The notes under the pieces were generated by a model, which was not told the DNA's origin, searched no databases, and was given only the letters and a program-made list of their open reading frames with translations. The position numbers and the translations under genes were made by a program. Shown here piece by piece: positions 11,780 through 63,703 of a DNA stretch of 64,000 nt. Source of the stretch: Thermoplasmata archaeon. GTDB lineage: Archaea; Thermoplasmatota; E2; JACPAO01; JAHFTW01. Every line of letters begins with the position of its first letter. Position 1 is the first letter of the stretch. The stretch spans positions 173,593-237,592 of the forward strand of contig JAXDQS010000001.1 in assembly GCA_034667725.1 (NCBI GenBank), given 5' to 3'.

Positions 11780-12357
11780 TTGCCGCCCTCGCCGCCGCCA
11801 TCGTCCTCCAGCCGGTCCTGGCCGAGCCGGCCGACGTGCGCCTGGTCGCGGCCGGCACCGGCGACGCGCCCATCGACTGGCTGGTGGACGGCGCCTTGGC
11901 CGCCACGACCCAGGACCGCCAGCCGGCCACCGTCCATCTGGCCGCCGGCTACCATACCGTCGCCGCGCGCAGCGCCAGCCCGACGCCATGGCGCGTCGTG
12001 GCCCGCCCCGACCCGCCTGGCCCCGGCTTGGTCTACGTGCCGGCGTGGACCGGCGCAAGCGACGGGGCCCCGCCTGCGGCGGCCCCGGTCCCAGCCGCGC
12101 CGGCCCTGACGCTGTTGGCTTGCCTTTTGACCTCGATGGCCGTGCGGCGCGCGTGCACATCGACCCCTGGGGCTCCTCGCAGTACCAGGACTATGCCAGG
12201 CTCCGCACCGAGTTCGGCATCGGCGCCTTCGGGCCCGAGGAGTGGGGCGCCTTCCGCGACGCGCACCGGCTGTTCCGGCGCAACGTGGTCTTCGGGCACC
12301 GCGACTTCGAGCGGGTGGCGGACGCCGTGCGGGGGCAGGATCCTTGGTCCGTCATGA
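11776..12357 (+). CDS. Small secreted/membrane protein; 3' end undefined (runs into trpS in another frame)
   Basis: ATG overlaps the upstream stop (ATGA). N-terminal hydrophobic segment MIAALAAAIVLQPVLA and a C-terminal hydrophobic + RR segment (…ALTLLACLLTSMAVRRA, near 12165). No stop codon occurs until 12357, overlapping trpS by ~240 nt. This is either a frameshift or a genuine overlap. Confidence 0.3.
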   Translation: MIAALAAAIVLQPVLAEPADVRLVAAGTGDAPIDWLVDGALAATTQDRQPATVHLAAGYHTVAARSASPTPWRVVARPDPPGPGLVYVPAWTGASDGAPPAAAPVPAAPALTLLACLLTSMAVRRACTSTPGAPRSTRTMPGSAPSSASAPSGPRSGAPSATRTGCSGATWSSGTATSSGWRTPCGGRILGPS

Positions 12358-18420: not shown

Positions 18421-18522
18421 CCTGCACGCCAAGTTGCCTCTTTGCCCCAGAGGCACGGCCCTGCCGCGAACCTGGGGAAAGTCGGTGTTGCCTTGCCTGT
18501 CCGGGACCGTCCCATCGCCGCG

Positions 18523-47206: not shown

Positions 47207-47290
47207 CGCTGGCGGGCAATCGGCGCCAGCGTCCGCCTTGGGCCAGGATTAGCCGAAAGCCTCACCTGTATTCCCTGGCCTCGTGGCCCG

Positions 47291-50200
47291 ATGCCGGACC
47301 TCAACCCGACGAACCGGAGGCCGCAGGACCTGAGGAGCGCCACGGGCAGCCCGGCCGCCCCGTCGGTCCCCTCCACTTCTGCCATCCCTTCCCCTGCGAC
47401 GCCCACGGTGCCTTCCATGCCAGACTCCCCCACGACCCCGTCCATCCCCATCGCCCCGTCGAGCCCGCTGACGCCCCCGTCGGCCCCCTCGGGCGGCACT
47501 CCAAGCCCACCGTCCCCCTCCGGGCTGCTGCTGGCCGCGCTGCAGAGCGCCACCGTCACGCCCTCCCGCGTCGCCTTGAAGCCCGGCCAGCCGTTCGCGC
47601 CGCAGCTCCAGCTCCCCGGCGCCGTCCTGGCCACGACCCCCGCCGGCCCGACGGCGCTGGACGTGGGCGCCATGGCCAAGGTTCGGTGGCAGGCCTACCC
47701 GGCCAAGGCCGACGGCACGCCGGACTACGCCAACCCCATGCCGCAGCGCCAAGCCACGCTGGTCGGCCCCGTCCACAGCCGGACGCCGACGTTCCTGTTC
47801 CGGCCGCGCATCCTGGGGGACGCCGACCCTGCCACGGCGACCCCGGCGTTCGTGGTGGCCCACCTGGAGGCCATGGCGGACGGCCTCGCGGTCCGGCACG
47901 ACATCCCCATCCCCGTGGACCTGGAGCCCATGGCCACCCGCGAGGTCTACGGCCAGCTGGGCCGCCTGTTCAAGGTCCAGGTCTCCGCCCCCGCCGTGCC
48001 GGCCGGCGGCATCCTGCGCGCCTCCATCCTGCCCCGCGGCGCCGAGGAGACGGAGTTCGTCGTCAAGACCGCCTCGCTCCAGGGCAAGCCCATCCTGGAG
48101 GTCACGGGCAGCGTGGGCCTGGACGGCGCCATGACCGCCCTCAACGCCATCGCGGGCAGGTCCGCCGCCCCCGGCGCCTTCGCGCTGCACGACGTGGCCA
48201 CTTCGATCGCCATCCTGAACGACCCTGCCGAGCGCGTGGCCGCGACCCTGGCGATGCTGGGCGAGCCCATCGACCGCCTGGCCGGCGTCATGGCGCTTCT
48301 GAGCGAGCCCACCGACCGGGTCGCCGCCACGCTGGCGATGTTGAGCGAGCCCGTCGACCGCGTCGCCTCCGCCCTGGCCCTGGCCTCCCTGCCGGTGGAC
48401 AAGATCGCTGACGTGGCCGCCGTCCTGCTGATCCCCCTGGACCGCATCGCGGGCATCATCGGCCTCTTGAGCGAGCCGTTCGAGGAGGTCGCCCGGGCGC
48501 TCCACTTGCTTGGCTACCCCGCCGAGAAGGTGGCGCAGGCCCTCGCCATGCTGGTGGAGCCGGTGGCCGGGGCCGTCAGCGTCGTGAGCGCCTTCATCGG
48601 CAAGGGCTCCGGCTTCGACGTGGACGCCGGCGACCTGACCCGCCAGGCCACCCCCGTCCTGGGAGGCGCCAGCCGTCTGGGCGACACGGCCGGCACCGTC
48701 GGCGCCCTGCTGGACACCAGCGACCTGCGCCGCCGCATCGCCTCCATCCTGGCGTCCACCGACGTCAAGGGGCAGGTCCGCGCCATGATGCAGGCCCCCG
48801 GGTTCCAGGAGCGCACGCGGGCCATCCTCGACGACCGCGGCCTGCCGGAACGGCTCGCGGCCGTGCTCGACAACAAGGACTCCATGCGCCGGCTACGGCC
48901 CCTCCAGCAGACGGGCCAGGGCAGCGACCGCGGGGCTGCCGTCCTGGCCGGGAAGGGCCGGCTGGAGCGCATGCAGGCCCAGGCCGCCCGCGACGGCGTG
49001 GCCCGCGGCGTGCAGCTCCCCATCAACGTCCAGGTCAAGAACGCCGACTTCACCAAGCACCTCGTCCGCCGCGAGGACGAGGACCCGGTGTACAAGCTGA
49101 CGCCCAGGGCCCGCCAGCTCCCCGAGGTGCCCGGCCTGGTGGACGAGATGCAGGTCGCCGACCGGCTGCCCGACGGGGTCGCGGCCTTCGAGGCGGGGCC
49201 GCTGCGGCTGCCGTTCTCCATCAAGGGCGCCACCTGGCAGCTCTTCCGGTCCCCCGGCGAGCGGGACGAACTGCCCGCCTCCCGCTACCGCTTCGCCGAG
49301 GGCACCGCGGGGCGGAACCTGGTCCGGTCGCTCCAGCTCGGCGTCCCCGAGGCTGACACGGTCCTGCGCCTCGTCGTCAAGCTCCAGTTCGGCTTCGACC
49401 CGAACCAGGTGGCCGCCGAGGGGCTGCCGCCGCTGCCGGACTCTTGGGTTGCGCTGCCCGACGTCCCGCTGCGTTGGCTAGGCGCCGACGTGCTGGACCT
49501 CGTGGCCCAGCAAATCACCCTGTCCGCCCCGGCCACGGTGCCGCCCGGCGGCCCCGTCCCCGCCAGCCTTGCCTGCCCCCTGTTCGCGCAGGCCGACCCG
49601 GCCGCCACCGAGGTCGGCGGCACCGCCACCCTCGGGGAGGGCGTGCCGGTGCCCTTCAAGATTACCAACGTCCAGTGGCGCCTCTTGGACACGACGGGGC
49701 AGGAACGGCAGCGGGACGCCGGCCGCACCGGCTTCGCCGCCCTGGCCGCCCGCCTGGACGCCGGGCTCCCCAGCACGGACGAGACCTGCGTGCTGGAGGC
49801 CTCGTTCCGCCTCCAGGCCGGCGACGGCGGCCTCGTGCCGACGACGCAAGGGGACGCGCCCTTGACCCTGCGCACCGCCCTGAGGATCGAGGGGGTGGAC
49901 GTCCTCGGGCTGCTGCTGTCCCAGATCTCCCTGGACGCGCCGGCCACGGTGCCCGCCGGCGCCACGGCCACCCTAGGCGTCCTGTCCCCCTTGCTGCCCG
50001 ACGGGCTCCCCGCCGGGGGCGCCACCGTGCGCCTGGCCATCGCGGGCGGCCCCGGCCTTCCCGTCCAGTTGGCGGACCCCGTGTGGGAGGTCAAGGACGA
50101 GGCGGGCCAAGCGGCCAACCTGCCTGTGCTGCCGCCCCAGGACACGACGCGCACCGTCGCGCTGTCGTTCGAGGCCCGGCCCACCGGCCTTCCCCCCACC

Positions 50201-52636
50201 CGTGTCCGGCTGGGGCCGGTGCGGATTCGCTTCCTGGGGCTCGACCTGGAGGCCGCCTTGCGCAGGCAGCTTGCCATCGGCTGCCCCGCCCGGCTGGCGC
50301 CTCTCGCGCCCTTGGCCGTGCGCCTGGATGGCGCCGTGCTGGAGGACAAGGCCATCCCGTTGGGCGTCGGCGTGCCCGCCTTGCCCATCGCGCTCGCCGG
50401 CGTCCAATGGAGCCTCAAGCGCAGGGACGGCTCGGCGGCCCCGGGCCAAGCCCTGCCGTCGCAGGCGCCGCAGGAGCAGTCCTACGGCATGCCGCTTCTG
50501 GCCGAGGACACGGCGCTTGCGCTGGAGGCCCAGGTCCGCCTCCAGGCCGGCGGCTTCGGCCCCATCCCCGTCCGCGAGGTGTCCCTGACCCTCCAGGCCG
50601 CGGTCACGGTGGCCGGCCTGGACGTCGGCAAGGCGTTGGGCGATGCCCTGCACATCCAGGCGCCTGCGTCTGTGGCTCCCGGCAAGCCGGTCGTCGCCCG
50701 GCTGGAGTCGCACCTCTTCCAGGCCACGGACGGCGCCACCGGCCTGCTCCCCGTGCCCGACGGCCCCGGCCTGCCCTTCGAGGTGCGGCGCGTGGACTGG
50801 ACCCTGGTCCCATCCAGCGGGCAGGCCCTCGCCGCCACGGGCGCGGGTCCCACGGTCCGGCAGGCCACGCTCGGCTCCCTGCTGCCCGAGGCCTCCACGG
50901 AGGCCATCGTCGGCGCCACCGTGATTGCCGCGGTCGCGGGCCAGGAGTTGGCGGCCCTCCGGCTGCCCCCTGTTCCCATCCAGTTGGGCGGCCTCGACCT
51001 GGTGCAGGCCGCCTTGGCGCAGCAGCTCCGCGTCGAGGTGCCGGCGACATCGCCCAAGATCGGGGACCACATCCAGGCGACCTTGACGGGGGCTGGCCTT
51101 GACTCCACCCCGGACGCGCTGGCCGGGACGCTCGGCGGCGACCTGCCGCTGCCGTTCAAGGTGTCCGCGGTCGCCTGGTCCTTGGAGCAGGCCGGCGGCG
51201 GCGCCGTCCCGGTGGCGACGGACCCCGAGCAGATGCGGACGCACACCTTCGACGCGCTGCTGCCGGACACCACGGTCCCCTGGTGGGTCCGGGCCAGCCT
51301 CACCGTGCAGGTGGACGGGCTGCGCGGCACGCCCGTCGAACGCCAGCTCGAGCTGCGGTCGCGGCCCCTGCGCATCCCTGGTGTGGACCTGGTGCGCGCC
51401 GCCGTGGTCGGCAAGCTCCGCCCGACCATCAAGGGAAACGAAGAGCCCGGCGGCTGGGTGGAGGTCGGCCTCGACGCCGACTTCCCGCTTCAGCCCAACG
51501 GCCCGAATCTGCGGGGAGTGAGGCTTGGAGTGGGGCGGCCGATGGTCGCCGGCCATCCCGTCGAGATTCTCGTGAGGCTGCAGGCCGGCGGTTCCGGGCT
51601 GGCTGGCGAACGCCCGTGCCTGGCCCGGTCCAAGGACAACCTAACATGGGAGCTCCTGTTCGCGCCGGAGGTGGCCATCCGGCCGGCCGGGCCCGCCACC
51701 CGCCCCGTGAAGGTACAGTTTGGTGTCTACATGCGCCACCCCCAGACGGGCGACGTTGTGACCTTGCACGTGGAACAGTCCGAGTCCATCGTGTTGGTTC
51801 CCCCGATCCAGTTGCCGGCGCTGGCGGCCGCCGTGGAGGAAGGCAAGATCGCCTGCATCGCGGTCCCCGACTACTACCGCTTTTGGCACGTGGACGGCTG
51901 GGAAAGCCTGGCGGACACCCTGAAGGCGGCCCGCAAGCAGGTCGAGGGGGTCCTTGAGGCCCTGCGGGCGAAAGGGGCGTCCACTTCCGACGTCGAGCCC
52001 TACTCGGTGACGGCGGAGGCCCTTCGCCTCATCCTGGACGCCAGCGGGGGCGCGGAGGCGTTCCGCTTCATGCGGAGAACCGGCGACATCTATTCCCACC
52101 CGGCCGACGAGGACATCAAGGCCGCCCAGAGTTGGCTGCTCGCCGTCCCGCAGTTCGGGGAAAGGATGGCCCTCGTGGCATTCACGCGCAGCACGTTCGG
52201 CATGACCACCCATGCCCAGATGGGCGGGGACATGGCAAGGGAGGTGGCGATGGCCCGGGGAAGTCCGTTCGACCTCTTGGAGCGCCTTGGCGAGTTGATG
52301 AAATCCCGCTACTTCTGGGACCGCTTCACGCGCCTGCCCAGCGCGCCGCCGGTCCTCATCCGCTACGACCTCCAGAACCCGGATGGCGTCTGGGAGGACG
52401 CACGGGCCCAGTTCGAGGCGGTGTACGCCGAGCCCCAGCCGCCCGTGCCGGCCGTCCGCCTGCTGCCGCCCCGCGGCTACCGCGCCGAATGGGACTTCAG
52501 GATGGGCGGCAAGAAGCGGGAGGGAAGCGCCGACCTGGCATCCGCTGGCAACCCGGACTTCCGGATGACCAAGGGCGGGTGGGACCGGCGTTTCATCGAC
52601 CAGTTGAACCTGTCGCCCCCCGAACCGGAGGCCTGA
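47291..52636 (+). CDS. Large (1781 aa) hypothetical repeat protein, no signal peptide or TM
   Basis: Pro/Ser-rich N-terminus. A run of 11-residue repeats follows (LAMLGEPIDRLAGV / MALLSEPTDRVAAT / LAMLSEPVDRVASA …; 33-nt period, ~48240-48560). Then six or more ~130-aa repeats share …LDAPATVPAG…LG…LPDG…PF[KE]V..V.W.L…. The ~230-aa C-terminus is non-repetitive. No family assignment is possible by eye. Confidence 0.55.
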   Translation: MPDLNPTNRRPQDLRSATGSPAAPSVPSTSAIPSPATPTVPSMPDSPTTPSIPIAPSSPLTPPSAPSGGTPSPPSPSGLLLAALQSATVTPSRVALKPGQPFAPQLQLPGAVLATTPAGPTALDVGAMAKVRWQAYPAKADGTPDYANPMPQRQATLVGPVHSRTPTFLFRPRILGDADPATATPAFVVAHLEAMADGLAVRHDIPIPVDLEPMATREVYGQLGRLFKVQVSAPAVPAGGILRASILPRGAEETEFVVKTASLQGKPILEVTGSVGLDGAMTALNAIAGRSAAPGAFALHDVATSIAILNDPAERVAATLAMLGEPIDRLAGVMALLSEPTDRVAATLAMLSEPVDRVASALALASLPVDKIADVAAVLLIPLDRIAGIIGLLSEPFEEVARALHLLGYPAEKVAQALAMLVEPVAGAVSVVSAFIGKGSGFDVDAGDLTRQATPVLGGASRLGDTAGTVGALLDTSDLRRRIASILASTDVKGQVRAMMQAPGFQERTRAILDDRGLPERLAAVLDNKDSMRRLRPLQQTGQGSDRGAAVLAGKGRLERMQAQAARDGVARGVQLPINVQVKNADFTKHLVRREDEDPVYKLTPRARQLPEVPGLVDEMQVADRLPDGVAAFEAGPLRLPFSIKGATWQLFRSPGERDELPASRYRFAEGTAGRNLVRSLQLGVPEADTVLRLVVKLQFGFDPNQVAAEGLPPLPDSWVALPDVPLRWLGADVLDLVAQQITLSAPATVPPGGPVPASLACPLFAQADPAATEVGGTATLGEGVPVPFKITNVQWRLLDTTGQERQRDAGRTGFAALAARLDAGLPSTDETCVLEASFRLQAGDGGLVPTTQGDAPLTLRTALRIEGVDVLGLLLSQISLDAPATVPAGATATLGVLSPLLPDGLPAGGATVRLAIAGGPGLPVQLADPVWEVKDEAGQAANLPVLPPQDTTRTVALSFEARPTGLPPTRVRLGPVRIRFLGLDLEAALRRQLAIGCPARLAPLAPLAVRLDGAVLEDKAIPLGVGVPALPIALAGVQWSLKRRDGSAAPGQALPSQAPQEQSYGMPLLAEDTALALEAQVRLQAGGFGPIPVREVSLTLQAAVTVAGLDVGKALGDALHIQAPASVAPGKPVVARLESHLFQATDGATGLLPVPDGPGLPFEVRRVDWTLVPSSGQALAATGAGPTVRQATLGSLLPEASTEAIVGATVIAAVAGQELAALRLPPVPIQLGGLDLVQAALAQQLRVEVPATSPKIGDHIQATLTGAGLDSTPDALAGTLGGDLPLPFKVSAVAWSLEQAGGGAVPVATDPEQMRTHTFDALLPDTTVPWWVRASLTVQVDGLRGTPVERQLELRSRPLRIPGVDLVRAAVVGKLRPTIKGNEEPGGWVEVGLDADFPLQPNGPNLRGVRLGVGRPMVAGHPVEILVRLQAGGSGLAGERPCLARSKDNLTWELLFAPEVAIRPAGPATRPVKVQFGVYMRHPQTGDVVTLHVEQSESIVLVPPIQLPALAAAVEEGKIACIAVPDYYRFWHVDGWESLADTLKAARKQVEGVLEALRAKGASTSDVEPYSVTAEALRLILDASGGAEAFRFMRRTGDIYSHPADEDIKAAQSWLLAVPQFGERMALVAFTRSTFGMTTHAQMGGDMAREVAMARGSPFDLLERLGELMKSRYFWDRFTRLPSAPPVLIRYDLQNPDGVWEDARAQFEAVYAEPQPPVPAVRLLPPRGYRAEWDFRMGGKKREGSADLASAGNPDFRMTKGGWDRRFIDQLNLSPPEPEA
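48240..48560 (+). repeat. 33-nt (11-codon) tandem periodic repeat inside the 1781-aa gene
   Basis: About nine or ten consecutive 11-aa units of consensus [LA]-[AL]-[ML]-L-[SG]-E-P-[VIT]-D-R-[VL]-A. Confidence 0.5.
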
Positions 52637-61596: not shown

Positions 61597-61884
61597 ATGC
61601 GCCCCGCCCTCGCGCTCCTGGCCATCGTCCTCGCCCTGCCCACCGCCACCGCCATGGCCGTCCCGCTGCCCGTCGTCGTCCACCTCGACGCCGACCCCGA
61701 CTGCACGGACTGCATCGGCGTCGAAGCCGGCGTCGGCGCCTTCATCCCCGGCTGCCTCGACTGCCCCGCCGTGGGCGCCTCCGCCGCCGCCGAGACCGAC
61801 GGCACCACCACGACCGCCACCGTCCGCGTCTGCTACGCCAGCTTCTACGTCCTCTGCCTCGTGGACGAGACGGTCACGGTCTAG
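61597..61884 (+). CDS. Small secreted Cys-rich protein (hypothetical)
   Basis: Signal peptide MRPALALLAIVLALPTATAMA followed by seven Cys in 70 aa (CTDCIG…PGCLDCP…). Its stop overlaps the next convergent ORF. Confidence 0.35.
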   Translation: MRPALALLAIVLALPTATAMAVPLPVVVHLDADPDCTDCIGVEAGVGAFIPGCLDCPAVGASAAAETDGTTTTATVRVCYASFYVLCLVDETVTV

Positions 61885-62225
61885 GACGTCCGGCTCTCCA
61901 CCACGACCACCTCGGGCCACCCCTGCATCGGGTAGGACTCCGCCCAGGCGTCCACGTCGAACGAGACCGTCTGCCCGACGCCCACGCTTTCGAGGGTGGT
62001 GGGCGGGCAGGAGCCGTCGTGCTCCCGTCGCAGCAGCCTGGCGCCCGAGAGATGCAGCACCGCCGGCTCGCCGCCGTCCAACTGGACGCGCAGCGACGAC
62101 TCGCCCACCTCGGTGACGGTGGCGCGCTGGCCAGGGCGGACGCAGGCCTCGCCGGGCAGGGGCTGGTCGGCGAGGCAGCCGGCCATCAGGACCGCGACGG
62201 CCAGCAAACCCAGGAGGCCACGCAT
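61881..62225 (-). CDS. Small lipoprotein (hypothetical)
   Basis: MRGLLGLLAVAVLMAGC lipobox signal peptide, 114 aa. Confidence 0.4.
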   Translation of the reverse strand: MRGLLGLLAVAVLMAGCLADQPLPGEACVRPGQRATVTEVGESSLRVQLDGGEPAVLHLSGARLLRREHDGSCPPTTLESVGVGQTVSFDVDAWAESYPMQGWPEVVVVESRTS

Positions 62226-62236
62226 GGAGGCCGCCG

Positions 62237-62476
62237 TCAGAGGAGCTCGCGGCAGCCGCGGCCGGCCTCGCAGCGGGTCACGGTGACCCCGTCGCCATCC
62301 GCGCAGGCGATGGTCGCCGTGCCACGGCCCTGGCCATGGTAGACGCAGACGGACTCCTCGCCCGCGTCGATGCCGGTGCAGGCGTCCTGGGCGACGCAGT
62401 GGCCGACCCACTCCCCGGACGCGGGGACGGCGAAGGCGGTCAAGGCGAGCAAGGCGATGGCAGCAAGGACGCGCAT
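62237..62476 (-). CDS. Small secreted Cys-rich protein (hypothetical), in frame with the read-through tfb ORF
   Basis: [21 protein letters not shown] signal peptide and eight Cys in 58 mature residues. As sequenced it is in the same frame as the tfb extension, but it has its own ATG 62476 and signal peptide. Confidence 0.3.
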
Positions 62477-62627
62477 CGGGGTGGCATGGCGGGCGCCGCG
62501 CTTAGGGGTTTGCCAGCCTTTCGGCCAGCCCCCTGAGCCTCGCTGATGCTCGCTCAGGGTCCGGCGTCGCCTTCGGCGTGCCTGCTCGCAGAGCGCGGCC
62601 TGTCGGACCTCGCCTCCTCGCTGCGGC

Positions 62628-63703
62628 TCAGAGGACGATGTCGATGTCCAAGCGCTCTGCCCCTTCCTGCCTTCGCTTCTCTCTGGCTGGAAGGTCCGCT
62701 CGCCTTCGCTGCGCTCGGCTCGCATCCACCTTCGGCTGAGGCCTTCGGCCTTCAGCACGATGTCGATGTCCAGCCTTTCGGCCAGCTCCTTGTACCGGTT
62801 GCGGATCGTGACCTCGGTCACGCCCGCGACCTCGGCGACCTCGCGCTGGGTGCGGCGCTCGCCCGACAGGATGCTCGCGATGTAGATGGCGGCCGCGGCG
62901 ACACCGGTCGGCCCCCTTCCACTCGTCAGTTCCCGGTCGGCGGCCTGCTTCAGGATGTCCACCGTCTTGGCCTGGACGTCGCCCGACAGCTTCAGCTCGG
63001 AGCAGAAGCGGGGGATGTAGTCCTGGGGCGCGGTCGGCATCAGCTTGAGCTTGAGCTCGCGGGCGATGAAGCGGTAGGTGCGGCCGATCTCCTTGCGGGA
63101 GACGCGGGACGCGTCGGCGATCTCGTCCAAGGTGCGCGGCACGTCGCACTGGCGGCAGGCGGCGTAGAGCGCGGCGGCGGCGACACCTTCGATGGAGCGG
63201 CCGCGGATGAGGTTCTTCGTGACGGCGCGCCGGTAGACCATGGCCGCCGTCTCGCGGACGTTGCGGGGCAGGCCCATGCCGGAGGCCATGCGGTCCAGCT
63301 CGGAGAGGGCGAAGGCGAGGTTGCGCTCGGTCGCGTTCGAGACGCGGATGCGGCGCTGCCACTTGCGCAGGCGGTAGAGCTGGGCGCGGTTGCGGGTCGG
63401 GATCGACTTGCCGTAGGAGTCCTTGTTCTTCCAGCCGATCATGGTGGAGAGACCCTTGTCGTGGATGGTGTAGGTCATGGGCGCGCCGACGCGGGCGCGC
63501 TTCTCGCGCTGCTCGGAGTCGAACGCGCGCCACTCGGGGCCTTGGTCGATGAACGCGTCGTCCAGCACCAGGCCGCAGGTCTCGCACACCATCTCGCCGC
63601 GCTCGTAGTCGGACTGGATGTGGTCCGACCCGCACTCCGGGCAAGTGGTGATCTCCTCGATCTTCTGCTGCTCCTTCTTCTTCGGCTTCGCGATCTCGAC
63701 CAT
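62628..63703 (-). CDS. tfb: Transcription initiation factor IIB (TFB); 3' end disrupted by an insertion/duplication
   Basis: N-terminal Zn ribbon CPECGS…CETCG, B-finger/linker, two cyclin-fold repeats and a C-terminal HTH (…[23 protein letters not shown]). The expected stop (…[12 protein letters not shown] 62628-62630) is present only in the +1 frame after a ~122-bp insertion flanked by the 16-bp direct repeat ACGATGTCGATGTCCA (62635-62650 and 62757-62772). As sequenced the frame reads through to 62237. Confidence 0.85.

Follow-up and report, generated by a model that had tools for sequence, protein, structure and literature searches.

Results

The tfb Gene and the Open Frame That Follows It

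The window is the whole stretch of 64,000 nucleotides of DNA that was analyzed here. Its GC content was determined to be 72%, and its best matches are MAGs from the Thermoplasmatota. The minus strand of the window carries a canonical tfb gene of 317 codons (positions 62753–63703), which was delimited from the open reading frame and its translation, from Pfam matches, from the identity to relatives, and from a GC content at the third codon position (GC3) of 0.97. The ATG start codon is located at 63703, and the last conserved codon, for the leucine of the terminal ...DIDIVL, is found at 62753–62755. The product contains the TFIIB zinc ribbon (PF08271, residues 20–61, E = 2.3e-18) and two stretches of the cyclin-like TFIIB repeat (PF00382, E = 1.7e-51), as expected of a TFB. 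The protein is 100% identical in amino acid sequence to those encoded at the related loci L003 and L004 and to protein P0121 from a JGI metagenome assembly.

The codon at which tfb is expected to terminate (62750–62752, minus strand) is AAG in the window, and it is TAG in the JGI contig at locus L086 and in the relative L083. The frame remains open past 62752 until a TGA at 62237–62239, for a total of 488 amino acids. The length of this open frame after the loss of the stop follows from the rarity of stop codons in a genome of 72% GC. A TFB is expected to end at ...DIDI[VI]L followed directly by a stop after about 310–320 residues; the JGI contig has the TAG and a product of 317 amino acids, whereas the window has AAG and 488 amino acids. 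Nearly all of the best 120 TFB homologues are 309–344 residues long, and DIDI[VI]L-stop, or a near variant of it, is the terminus of every one that was inspected. The original prediction, which was correct in reporting that tfb lacks a stop after ...DIDIVL, had allowed for a genuinely extended TFB if reads were to support the sequence uniformly and the orthologous 3′ ends to carry the same extension. When these ends were compared, no orthologue was found to extend beyond the conserved end of TFB, with the exception of one unrelated read-through ORF (P0079).

In the frame of the window, the 276 nt from 62477 to 62752 (minus strand) would be read as an extension of TFB. The GC contents at the three codon positions were determined to be 0.66, 0.68, and 0.74 for this stretch versus 0.62, 0.46, and 0.97 for tfb. 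The stretch therefore has no codon periodicity, and the apparent extension is of noncoding composition. It is described here as a spacer that is rich in repeats and hairpins, on the basis of codon-position GC, motif counts, and folding. The motif SCGAARGS occurs 6 times within 265 nt of the spacer versus 42 times on both strands of the entire 64 kb, and the z-score for folding of the spacer is −3.3. No Rfam family was found between 62100 and 63000, where the lone match, a sub-threshold chance similarity to CRISPR-DR28, scored 16.3 bits versus a gathering score of 35.

The GC3 returns to 0.93 in a 79-codon ORF that starts at 62476. This ORF (62237–62476, minus strand) is a separate gene for a Cys-rich protein of 79 amino acids with a signal-peptide-like start. 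It has its own gene call in the JGI and Logan assemblies, and it shares the frame of tfb by chance. A protein search with the extension together with the Cys-rich ORF returned no homologue, and homology searches with the 79-residue protein alone gave no match. A fusion of TFB to this protein had been regarded as implausible from the outset, and we agree, given the noncoding composition of the extension, its lack of homologues, and the termination of the orthologues at the conserved C-terminus.

The next gene downstream encodes a lipoprotein-like protein of 114 amino acids (61881–62225, minus strand). In L003 and L083, the closest other species, this gene adjoins the stop codon of tfb, and its ATG is found 5 nt (L003) or 3 nt (L083) past that stop. 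The tfb gene of L003 is about 92–93% identical to that of the window at the nucleotide level. Since the lipoprotein gene directly follows tfb in both species, the 527 nt from 62226 to 62752 are extra in the lineage of the window. Nine flanking genes from approximately 52 to 62.5 kb of the window were scanned against Pfam. Trm1, DJ-1/PfpI, and an NTPase are among them, others lack a Pfam match, and none is a recombinase.

Comparison of the Window with a Second Assembly

The same population was found by exact-sequence look-ups in JGI metagenome 3300044738. The locus is divided there between two contigs. The first is Ga0467041_0000031 (236 kb, loci L084 and L088), to which a Logan contig of SRR24887408 (L085) is identical, and the second is Ga0467041_0000057 (112 kb, loci L086 and L089). 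Ga0467041_0000031 and L085 begin at window position 62693 and are identical to the window over 10,813 nt (62693–51881), except at 62688, 62684, and 62680. They include the Cys-rich ORF and the two displaced copies of the tfb end (copies 2 and 3) that are described below. Ga0467041_0000057 terminates at window position 62705 and is identical to the window from 64000 to 62705, except at 62752, 62731, and 62728.

The window and the JGI contigs are thus identical at 12,103 of 12,109 bases, with six mismatches. All six are confined to a patch of 73 nt (62680–62752, minus strand), where they fall among 62 comparable bases, and there are none among the other 12,047 nt. Both short-read contigs end inside this patch, 11 nt apart, and the 11 nt from 62694 to 62704 are found in the window alone. 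Five of the differences are exchanges of A and T, and one is an exchange of C and A.

The sequence of Ga0467041_0000057 reads GAC ATC GTG CTG TAG and then GCCGAAGGCCTCAGCC / GCCGAAGGCC, so that the segment thought to have been inserted follows immediately after an intact, in-frame stop. The gene call by JGI on this contig is a TFB of 317 amino acids, on record as P0121. Because the JGI allele contains both the supposed insert and the intact TAG, the stop is missing from the window through a single change of T to A at 62752, and not through an insertion, as had originally been proposed. A deletion within the stop of 1 nt (GTGCTG-T-AAGG) or of 2 nt (CTCTGA→CTGA) was also considered, by analogy with L001/L009 and L007b, respectively. 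This reading was dropped because the difference from L086 is a plain substitution that leaves the length unchanged.

The 488-residue ORF is on record from one source, NCBI entry MEA3189610.1, which is located on a MAG contig of 367,845 bp. The window presumably derives from this contig, which joins the two JGI contigs and supplies the 11 nt between them. The ORFs of 488 and 551 amino acids are absent from the position index, and the version of 523 amino acids is absent from the protein collection. A search of metagenome contigs for the exact junction ATCGTGCTGAAGGCCGAAGGCCTC gave 0 matches, which is uninformative because the collection evidently does not include sample 3300044738. With regard to the placement and type of the differences, those seen in the JGI assembly sit at the very ends of contigs, which are the least reliable part of short-read contigs, and six substitutions with no indel are unlike the classic error profile of long reads.

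Hairpins in the 73-nt Patch

Two hairpins were identified at the patch by folding of both alleles. The one around the position of the stop codon (62730–62762, minus strand) can be written as CATCG-T-GCTG-N-AGGCC-GAA-GGCCT-CAGC-CGAWG. In the JGI allele, this hairpin comprises 14 bp; in the allele of the window, its outer stem is broken. The second hairpin (62662–62694, minus strand) has the arms CCTTCCTGCCT and AGGCAGGAAGG, which form a perfect 11-bp stem in the JGI allele and contain two A·A mismatches in the allele of the window. The folding energy of a 171-nt segment was calculated to be −84.3 kcal/mol for JGI versus −72.0 kcal/mol for the window. Illumina sequencing is known to make sequence-specific errors at inverted repeats and GGC motifs (PMC3141275), and these features could also account for the loss of coverage and the contig break at this site. 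A fold-back artefact at the end of the JGI contig was examined and rejected; it would cover only 10–11 nt of a stem arm, and not the loop difference or the TAG.

Orphan tfb Ends in the Window

The terminal residues of TFB are encoded again downstream of the gene. The 16-nt repeat TGGACATCGACATCGT is present within tfb (62757–62772, minus strand), and an exact second copy was found by repeat search 122 nt away (62635–62650, minus strand), as had been reported previously. The E-value of the exact 16-nt repeat within the window is 0.004. The distal repeat lies within a longer unit, here called copy 2 (62628–62660, minus strand), that was recovered by repeat and six-frame peptide searches and consists of ten codons of the tfb 3′ end followed by TGA at 62628–62630. 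Copy 2 is 122 nt downstream of copy 1, the end of tfb itself, and is 2 nt out of frame; the "+1" of the original prediction is a matter of convention. In a six-frame search of the window, the 10-residue end peptide was found at these two sites only. Copy 2 is exactly reproduced in the JGI and Logan contigs (L084 and L085).

Over 30 nt, copies 1 and 2 show seven differences, every one of them synonymous (P about 5e-6 if changes were random); the three codons upstream of the ten terminal codons of copy 2 carry nonsynonymous changes. At a GC3 of 0.97, GACATCGACATCGT is nearly the only way in which the peptide DIDIV can be encoded. The 16-nt identity is therefore a by-product of a repeat at the level of the peptide, and it is not evidence for a target-site duplication. 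A third and decayed copy, CAGGGGGCTGGCCGAAAGGCTGG (copy 3, 62513–62535, minus strand), was recognized from a match of 21/23 nt to the part of tfb that encodes KELAERL; it corresponds to approximately these residues and does not include the DIDIVL part. The spacings within the array are 122 and 135 nt.

Copy 1 is identical to the end of tfb in L083 (30/30 nt). The best matches to copy 2 and its flank are the tfb ends and flanks of L007, L002, and L004 (36–37/43 nt), and the comparison with L007 and L004 suggests that the 122-nt segment is situated inside a former gene end. An assignment of copy 2 to a second type of tfb paralogue was rejected, since both types match about equally well. The possibility that the spacer is a collinear, decayed tfb pseudogene was likewise discarded, the additional matches being no better than those of shuffled controls (best shuffle 31.6 bits). 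A test for a mosaic tfb gave a weak signal, with the window and L083 identical at 59/60 positions over the last 60 nt versus an average of about 53/60 along the gene.

Orphan tfb Ends in Related Species

Orphan tfb ends were found past tfb in six related species (L004, L008, L013, L021, L020, and L043). In L008, the gene is followed by a 138-bp tandem repeat (2.1 copies, 93% matches) and by a decayed third copy. The orphan end is located 149 nt downstream of tfb in L013, 166 nt downstream in L021, and 133 nt past the second tfb in L004, and L020 and L043 have longer decayed tfb fragments downstream of the gene. The orphan end of L013 differs at five positions, all of which are synonymous. The unit of the window that extends from copy 2 to copy 3 is homologous to the unit of L008, with 90% identity over the first 31 nt. 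Two tfb genes are arranged in tandem in L002, L004, L006, L007, and L009.

Archaea can have multiple tfb genes, as is well known for haloarchaea. The tandem genes listed above and the decayed fragments of L020 and L043 resemble the expansion and decay of such paralogues, and the orphan end of the window, with its synonymous differences only, fits a copy that was once functional. However, the window, L008, L013, and L021 repeat only the last 10–19 codons of tfb at spacings of 122–166 nt, sometimes as plain tandem units, and short partial duplications fit this pattern better than the decay of whole genes.

Copies 2 and 3 are real, and they are older than, and separate from, the loss of the stop; they are ordinary remnants that are not translated. 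The array probably arose as the end of tfb was partly duplicated or replaced again and again. The spacer would then be a small, decaying array in which the unit is the 3′ end of tfb with about 100 nt of flank. New units of end plus flank, each with its own stop, would have been placed repeatedly before the older ends, which would have been pushed downstream to decay in the spacer. This could have come about through unequal recombination between copies, through recombination with paralogous or foreign tfb genes, or through the decay of tandem tfb copies.

Discussion

Origin of the Missing Stop Codon

We conclude from the comparison of the assemblies that the missing stop of tfb is probably a residual consensus error in the MAG, within a patch beyond the reach of short-read polishing. 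On this reading, tfb itself would be an ordinary gene of 317 codons. The MAG contig would span a hairpin-rich and GC-rich stretch at which the short-read assemblies of the same population break, and a contig that bridges such a gap may have been left unpolished over 73 nt, with six consensus differences as the result. One of these would turn the TAG of tfb into AAG. The frame would then run on for 171 more codons, over the noncoding spacer and into the next gene, and the annotation would have made a 488-residue "transcription initiation factor" of the read-through frame. The original prediction had named an assembly artefact or heterogeneity as one explanation. This is where the evidence points, although the lesion would be a single base in a fragile hairpin patch and not a length difference of 122 bp.

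The situation resembles the read-through ORFs that arise from consensus errors in MAGs of high GC content. As in those cases, loss of the stop takes one base, the frame then continues for hundreds of nucleotides at 72% GC, a longer protein is annotated, and the difference is located where short-read contigs break. Here, however, six substitutions are closely clustered in hairpins, unlike an isolated miscall or a homopolymer indel, and which of the assemblies is faulty is something that we infer. The bases of the JGI assembly look original, judging from the conserved position of the stop, from L083, from the unit of L008, and from the better hairpins. In L083, the last 30 nt of tfb and the TAG are identical to the JGI allele, and the CGATGG of the JGI allele is similar to the TCGATGG found in the unit of L008. 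An error at a contig end that creates a stop at precisely the conserved codon is unlikely. The changes are mostly transversions between A and T, which is unusual for point mutations of natural origin. The chance that six changes over 73 nt strike the three bases of the stop is roughly one in four.

A genuine AAG allele is possible but unlikely. In the strain or sample of the MAG, six bases of the hairpin and short-repeat patch would have been changed together by a clustered mutation event, either by template switching between imperfect inverted repeats or by gene conversion among the CCGAAGG and CCWG repeats, and the strain would then produce a TFB of 488 amino acids or depend on a second tfb. 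The MAG may also derive from a different sample that truly has AAG. Clustered multinucleotide changes are a known mutational outcome at imperfect inverted repeats, and the substitutions seen here resemble such template-switch (quasipalindrome) clusters in that several lie within tens of nucleotides in imperfect hairpins (PMC8604942, PMC8794818). The bases of the window at 62752 and 62731 each generate the local repeat GAAGG, those at 62688 and 62684 together convert CCTGCCTG to CCAGCCAG, and the tandem tfb paralogues of the relatives could buffer a damaged copy. However, no more than three of the differences (62731, 62688, and 62684) fall within the arms of hairpins, and the remaining three, in a bulge and in loops, are not covered by template switching. 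The expected direction of change is also in conflict with the conserved stop, since template switching raises the complementarity of the arms, which would point to the JGI allele as the derived one, although this allele has the conserved stop. A single record carries the 488-residue ORF. Furthermore, the TFB protein is 100% conserved across species that differ by 7–10% at the DNA level, so that a tail of 171 residues with a hydrophobic segment would be strongly selected against. We give very little credence to the related notion that the 73-nt patch is a genuinely hypervariable spot, in which template switching or gene conversion among short repeats turns the stop of tfb off in part of the population, and in which the peptide-conserved orphan ends are kept to feed this recombination. 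If this were true, some cells would produce a TFB whose 171-residue tail terminates with a Cys-rich peptide of the secretory type.

The remaining explanations concern the origin of the repeats or a function for the open frame. A recent insertion or duplication of 122 bp with 16-bp direct repeats, which took out the stop and whose precise excision would restore the gene, is highly improbable. Excision between the repeats does yield the canonical end ...GACATCGACATCGTCCTCTGA, as originally predicted, and the restored end with its flank is similar to the tfb ends of L004 and L007. However, the same inserted sequence is present in L086 together with an intact TAG, so that the insertion and the loss of the stop are separate events, and an allele that is 122 bp shorter is not needed, because the segment brought its own end and stop. 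The 16-nt identity is predicted by the codon bias alone, and the repeat is not recent, since its flanks differ at seven synonymous sites. Neither are the marks of a MITE or transposon present: the segment is not bounded by inverted repeats, and no other copy was found in the 64-kb window or in approximately 20 kb of JGI sequence, which includes the 10 kb past tfb outside of the window.

Integrative elements are known to duplicate the 3′ ends of tRNA or protein genes as attL and attR, and casposons generate target-site duplications at the 3′ ends of genes for tRNA or EF-2. The repeats could similarly be scars of the attachment site of an integrative, viral, or casposon-like element that targeted the end of tfb and supplied a replacement gene end, but this is very doubtful. 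The layout is reminiscent of attL/attR, in that the gene is intact in the JGI allele, a duplicated and only synonymously different end is displaced downstream, and empty sites are present in L003 and L083; such sites are equally expected from simple insertion, duplication, or deletion. The arrangement also recurs in several lineages, with 0.1–2 kb of variable DNA after tfb. In the window, however, the "element" would be only the 106 nt between the copies, with neither recombinase nor cargo, the flanks of the repeats differ, and no copies of an element were found elsewhere in the window or in the 10 kb beyond it. In L008, the copies form simple tandem repeats that share their flank. No integrase, recombinase, transposase, Cas1, or viral gene was found among the nine flanking genes (approximately 52–62.5 kb) and five giant ORFs that were scanned, or among the JGI gene calls within 10 kb on either side, and a search of viral contigs for the pattern of the tfb end gave 0 matches. 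Programmed recoding by frameshift or readthrough, and a targeted, adenine-directed hypermutation of the retroelement type at the 3′ end of tfb, are scarcely credible. All six sites have A in one of the two alleles, and in five of them it is the allele of the window. The JGI allele has its stop in frame 0 and so requires no frameshift, which was part of the original prediction. The extension is of noncoding composition, with neither codon periodicity nor homologues, and the orthologues, apart from P0079, stop at IVL. No reverse transcriptase, as would be expected for a diversity-generating retroelement, was found in the 15 ORFs of the window that were scanned or in the JGI gene calls within 10 kb on either side, and no template copy of the patch is present in the window or in the 10 kb beyond.

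Implications

It would be remarkable if a general transcription factor had lost its stop codon and become fused to a secreted peptide, but the evidence indicates that this protein is not real. The public record MEA3189610.1 very likely represents a wrongly called TFB, in which the fusion hides a separate gene of 79 amino acids. In very GC-rich MAGs, hairpin-rich intergenic patches can keep unpolished bases, which produce long, false ORFs. The orphan 3′ ends of tfb that recur in this clade of the Thermoplasmatota are a small but real sign of a local hotspot of duplication and recombination at the end of an extremely conserved gene.

Arrangement of tfb in Related Loci

The window carries a single tfb gene at this locus, whereas several close relatives carry tandem pairs. 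Two tandem tfb genes are found at positions 2156–4151 of L004, 2518–4511 of L007, and 3001–4949 of L009, and the gene is paired in the same manner in L006 and L002. The members of these pairs are approximately 94% identical to one another in protein sequence and are separated by 90–140 nt. In L001 (5952–6631), a relative that is 96% identical, the tfb stop codon overlaps the start codon of an 84-aa ORF (TAAATG), and this ORF is followed by a 141-aa ORF with a weak match to the retropepsin-like RVP family. With these two ORFs, the corresponding site downstream of tfb carries different cargo in L001.

The spacer after tfb contains repeated copies of the gene end in other relatives. At positions 1229–1560 of L008, a 138-bp unit comprising ~37 nt from the end of tfb, the stop codon, and ~100 nt of flanking sequence forms a tandem array (2.1 copies, 93% matches), after which comes a third copy in decayed form. 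The array looks like a recent instance of the same process of tfb-end duplication. In L021 (3880–4250) and L013 (1600–1800), near-identical tfb-end copies of 51–57 nt lie on both sides of 92–115 nt that form strong perfect hairpins. The tfb-end parts in L021 differ at only 2 of 51 nt, but the two units have quite dissimilar hairpin cores, and this pattern of divergence suggests that the tfb-derived part is under conversion or selection.

Very Long ORFs in the Window

Five very long ORFs of 1402, 2252, 1522, 1600, and 1809 codons are located on the (+) strand at 18421–39284 and 47207–52636, with GC3 values of 0.93–0.98. Thrombospondin type 3, fibronectin type III, or BNR repeats were identified in four of the five, which are probably surface proteins; the Pfam scan returned no match for the ORF of 1809 codons.

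TFB Records and the Cys-Rich ORF

Two homologues recovered with the window TFB are unusual. Protein P0079 (466 aa) extends ~150 residues beyond the TFB C-terminus (...KLGIKVEFEAGPSG...), and P0043 (331 aa) contains an internal tandem duplication of 19 residues. Both records may reflect additional problems of assembly or annotation in the TFB gene family.

The 79-aa Cys-rich ORF that follows tfb in the window (62237–62476, (–) strand) has a signal-peptide-like start and a strong coding composition. It had no match in the Pfam scan, and neither the search of 5.8 billion proteins nor any of the related loci yielded a homologue. The public MAG annotation absorbs this ORF into a 488-aa “TFB” (MEA3189610.1). 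The 79-aa protein and the TFBs share one protein cluster at 90% identity, and the 488-aa fusion ORF is presumably the link that joins them. Protein clustering can thus be contaminated by a single false read-through ORF.
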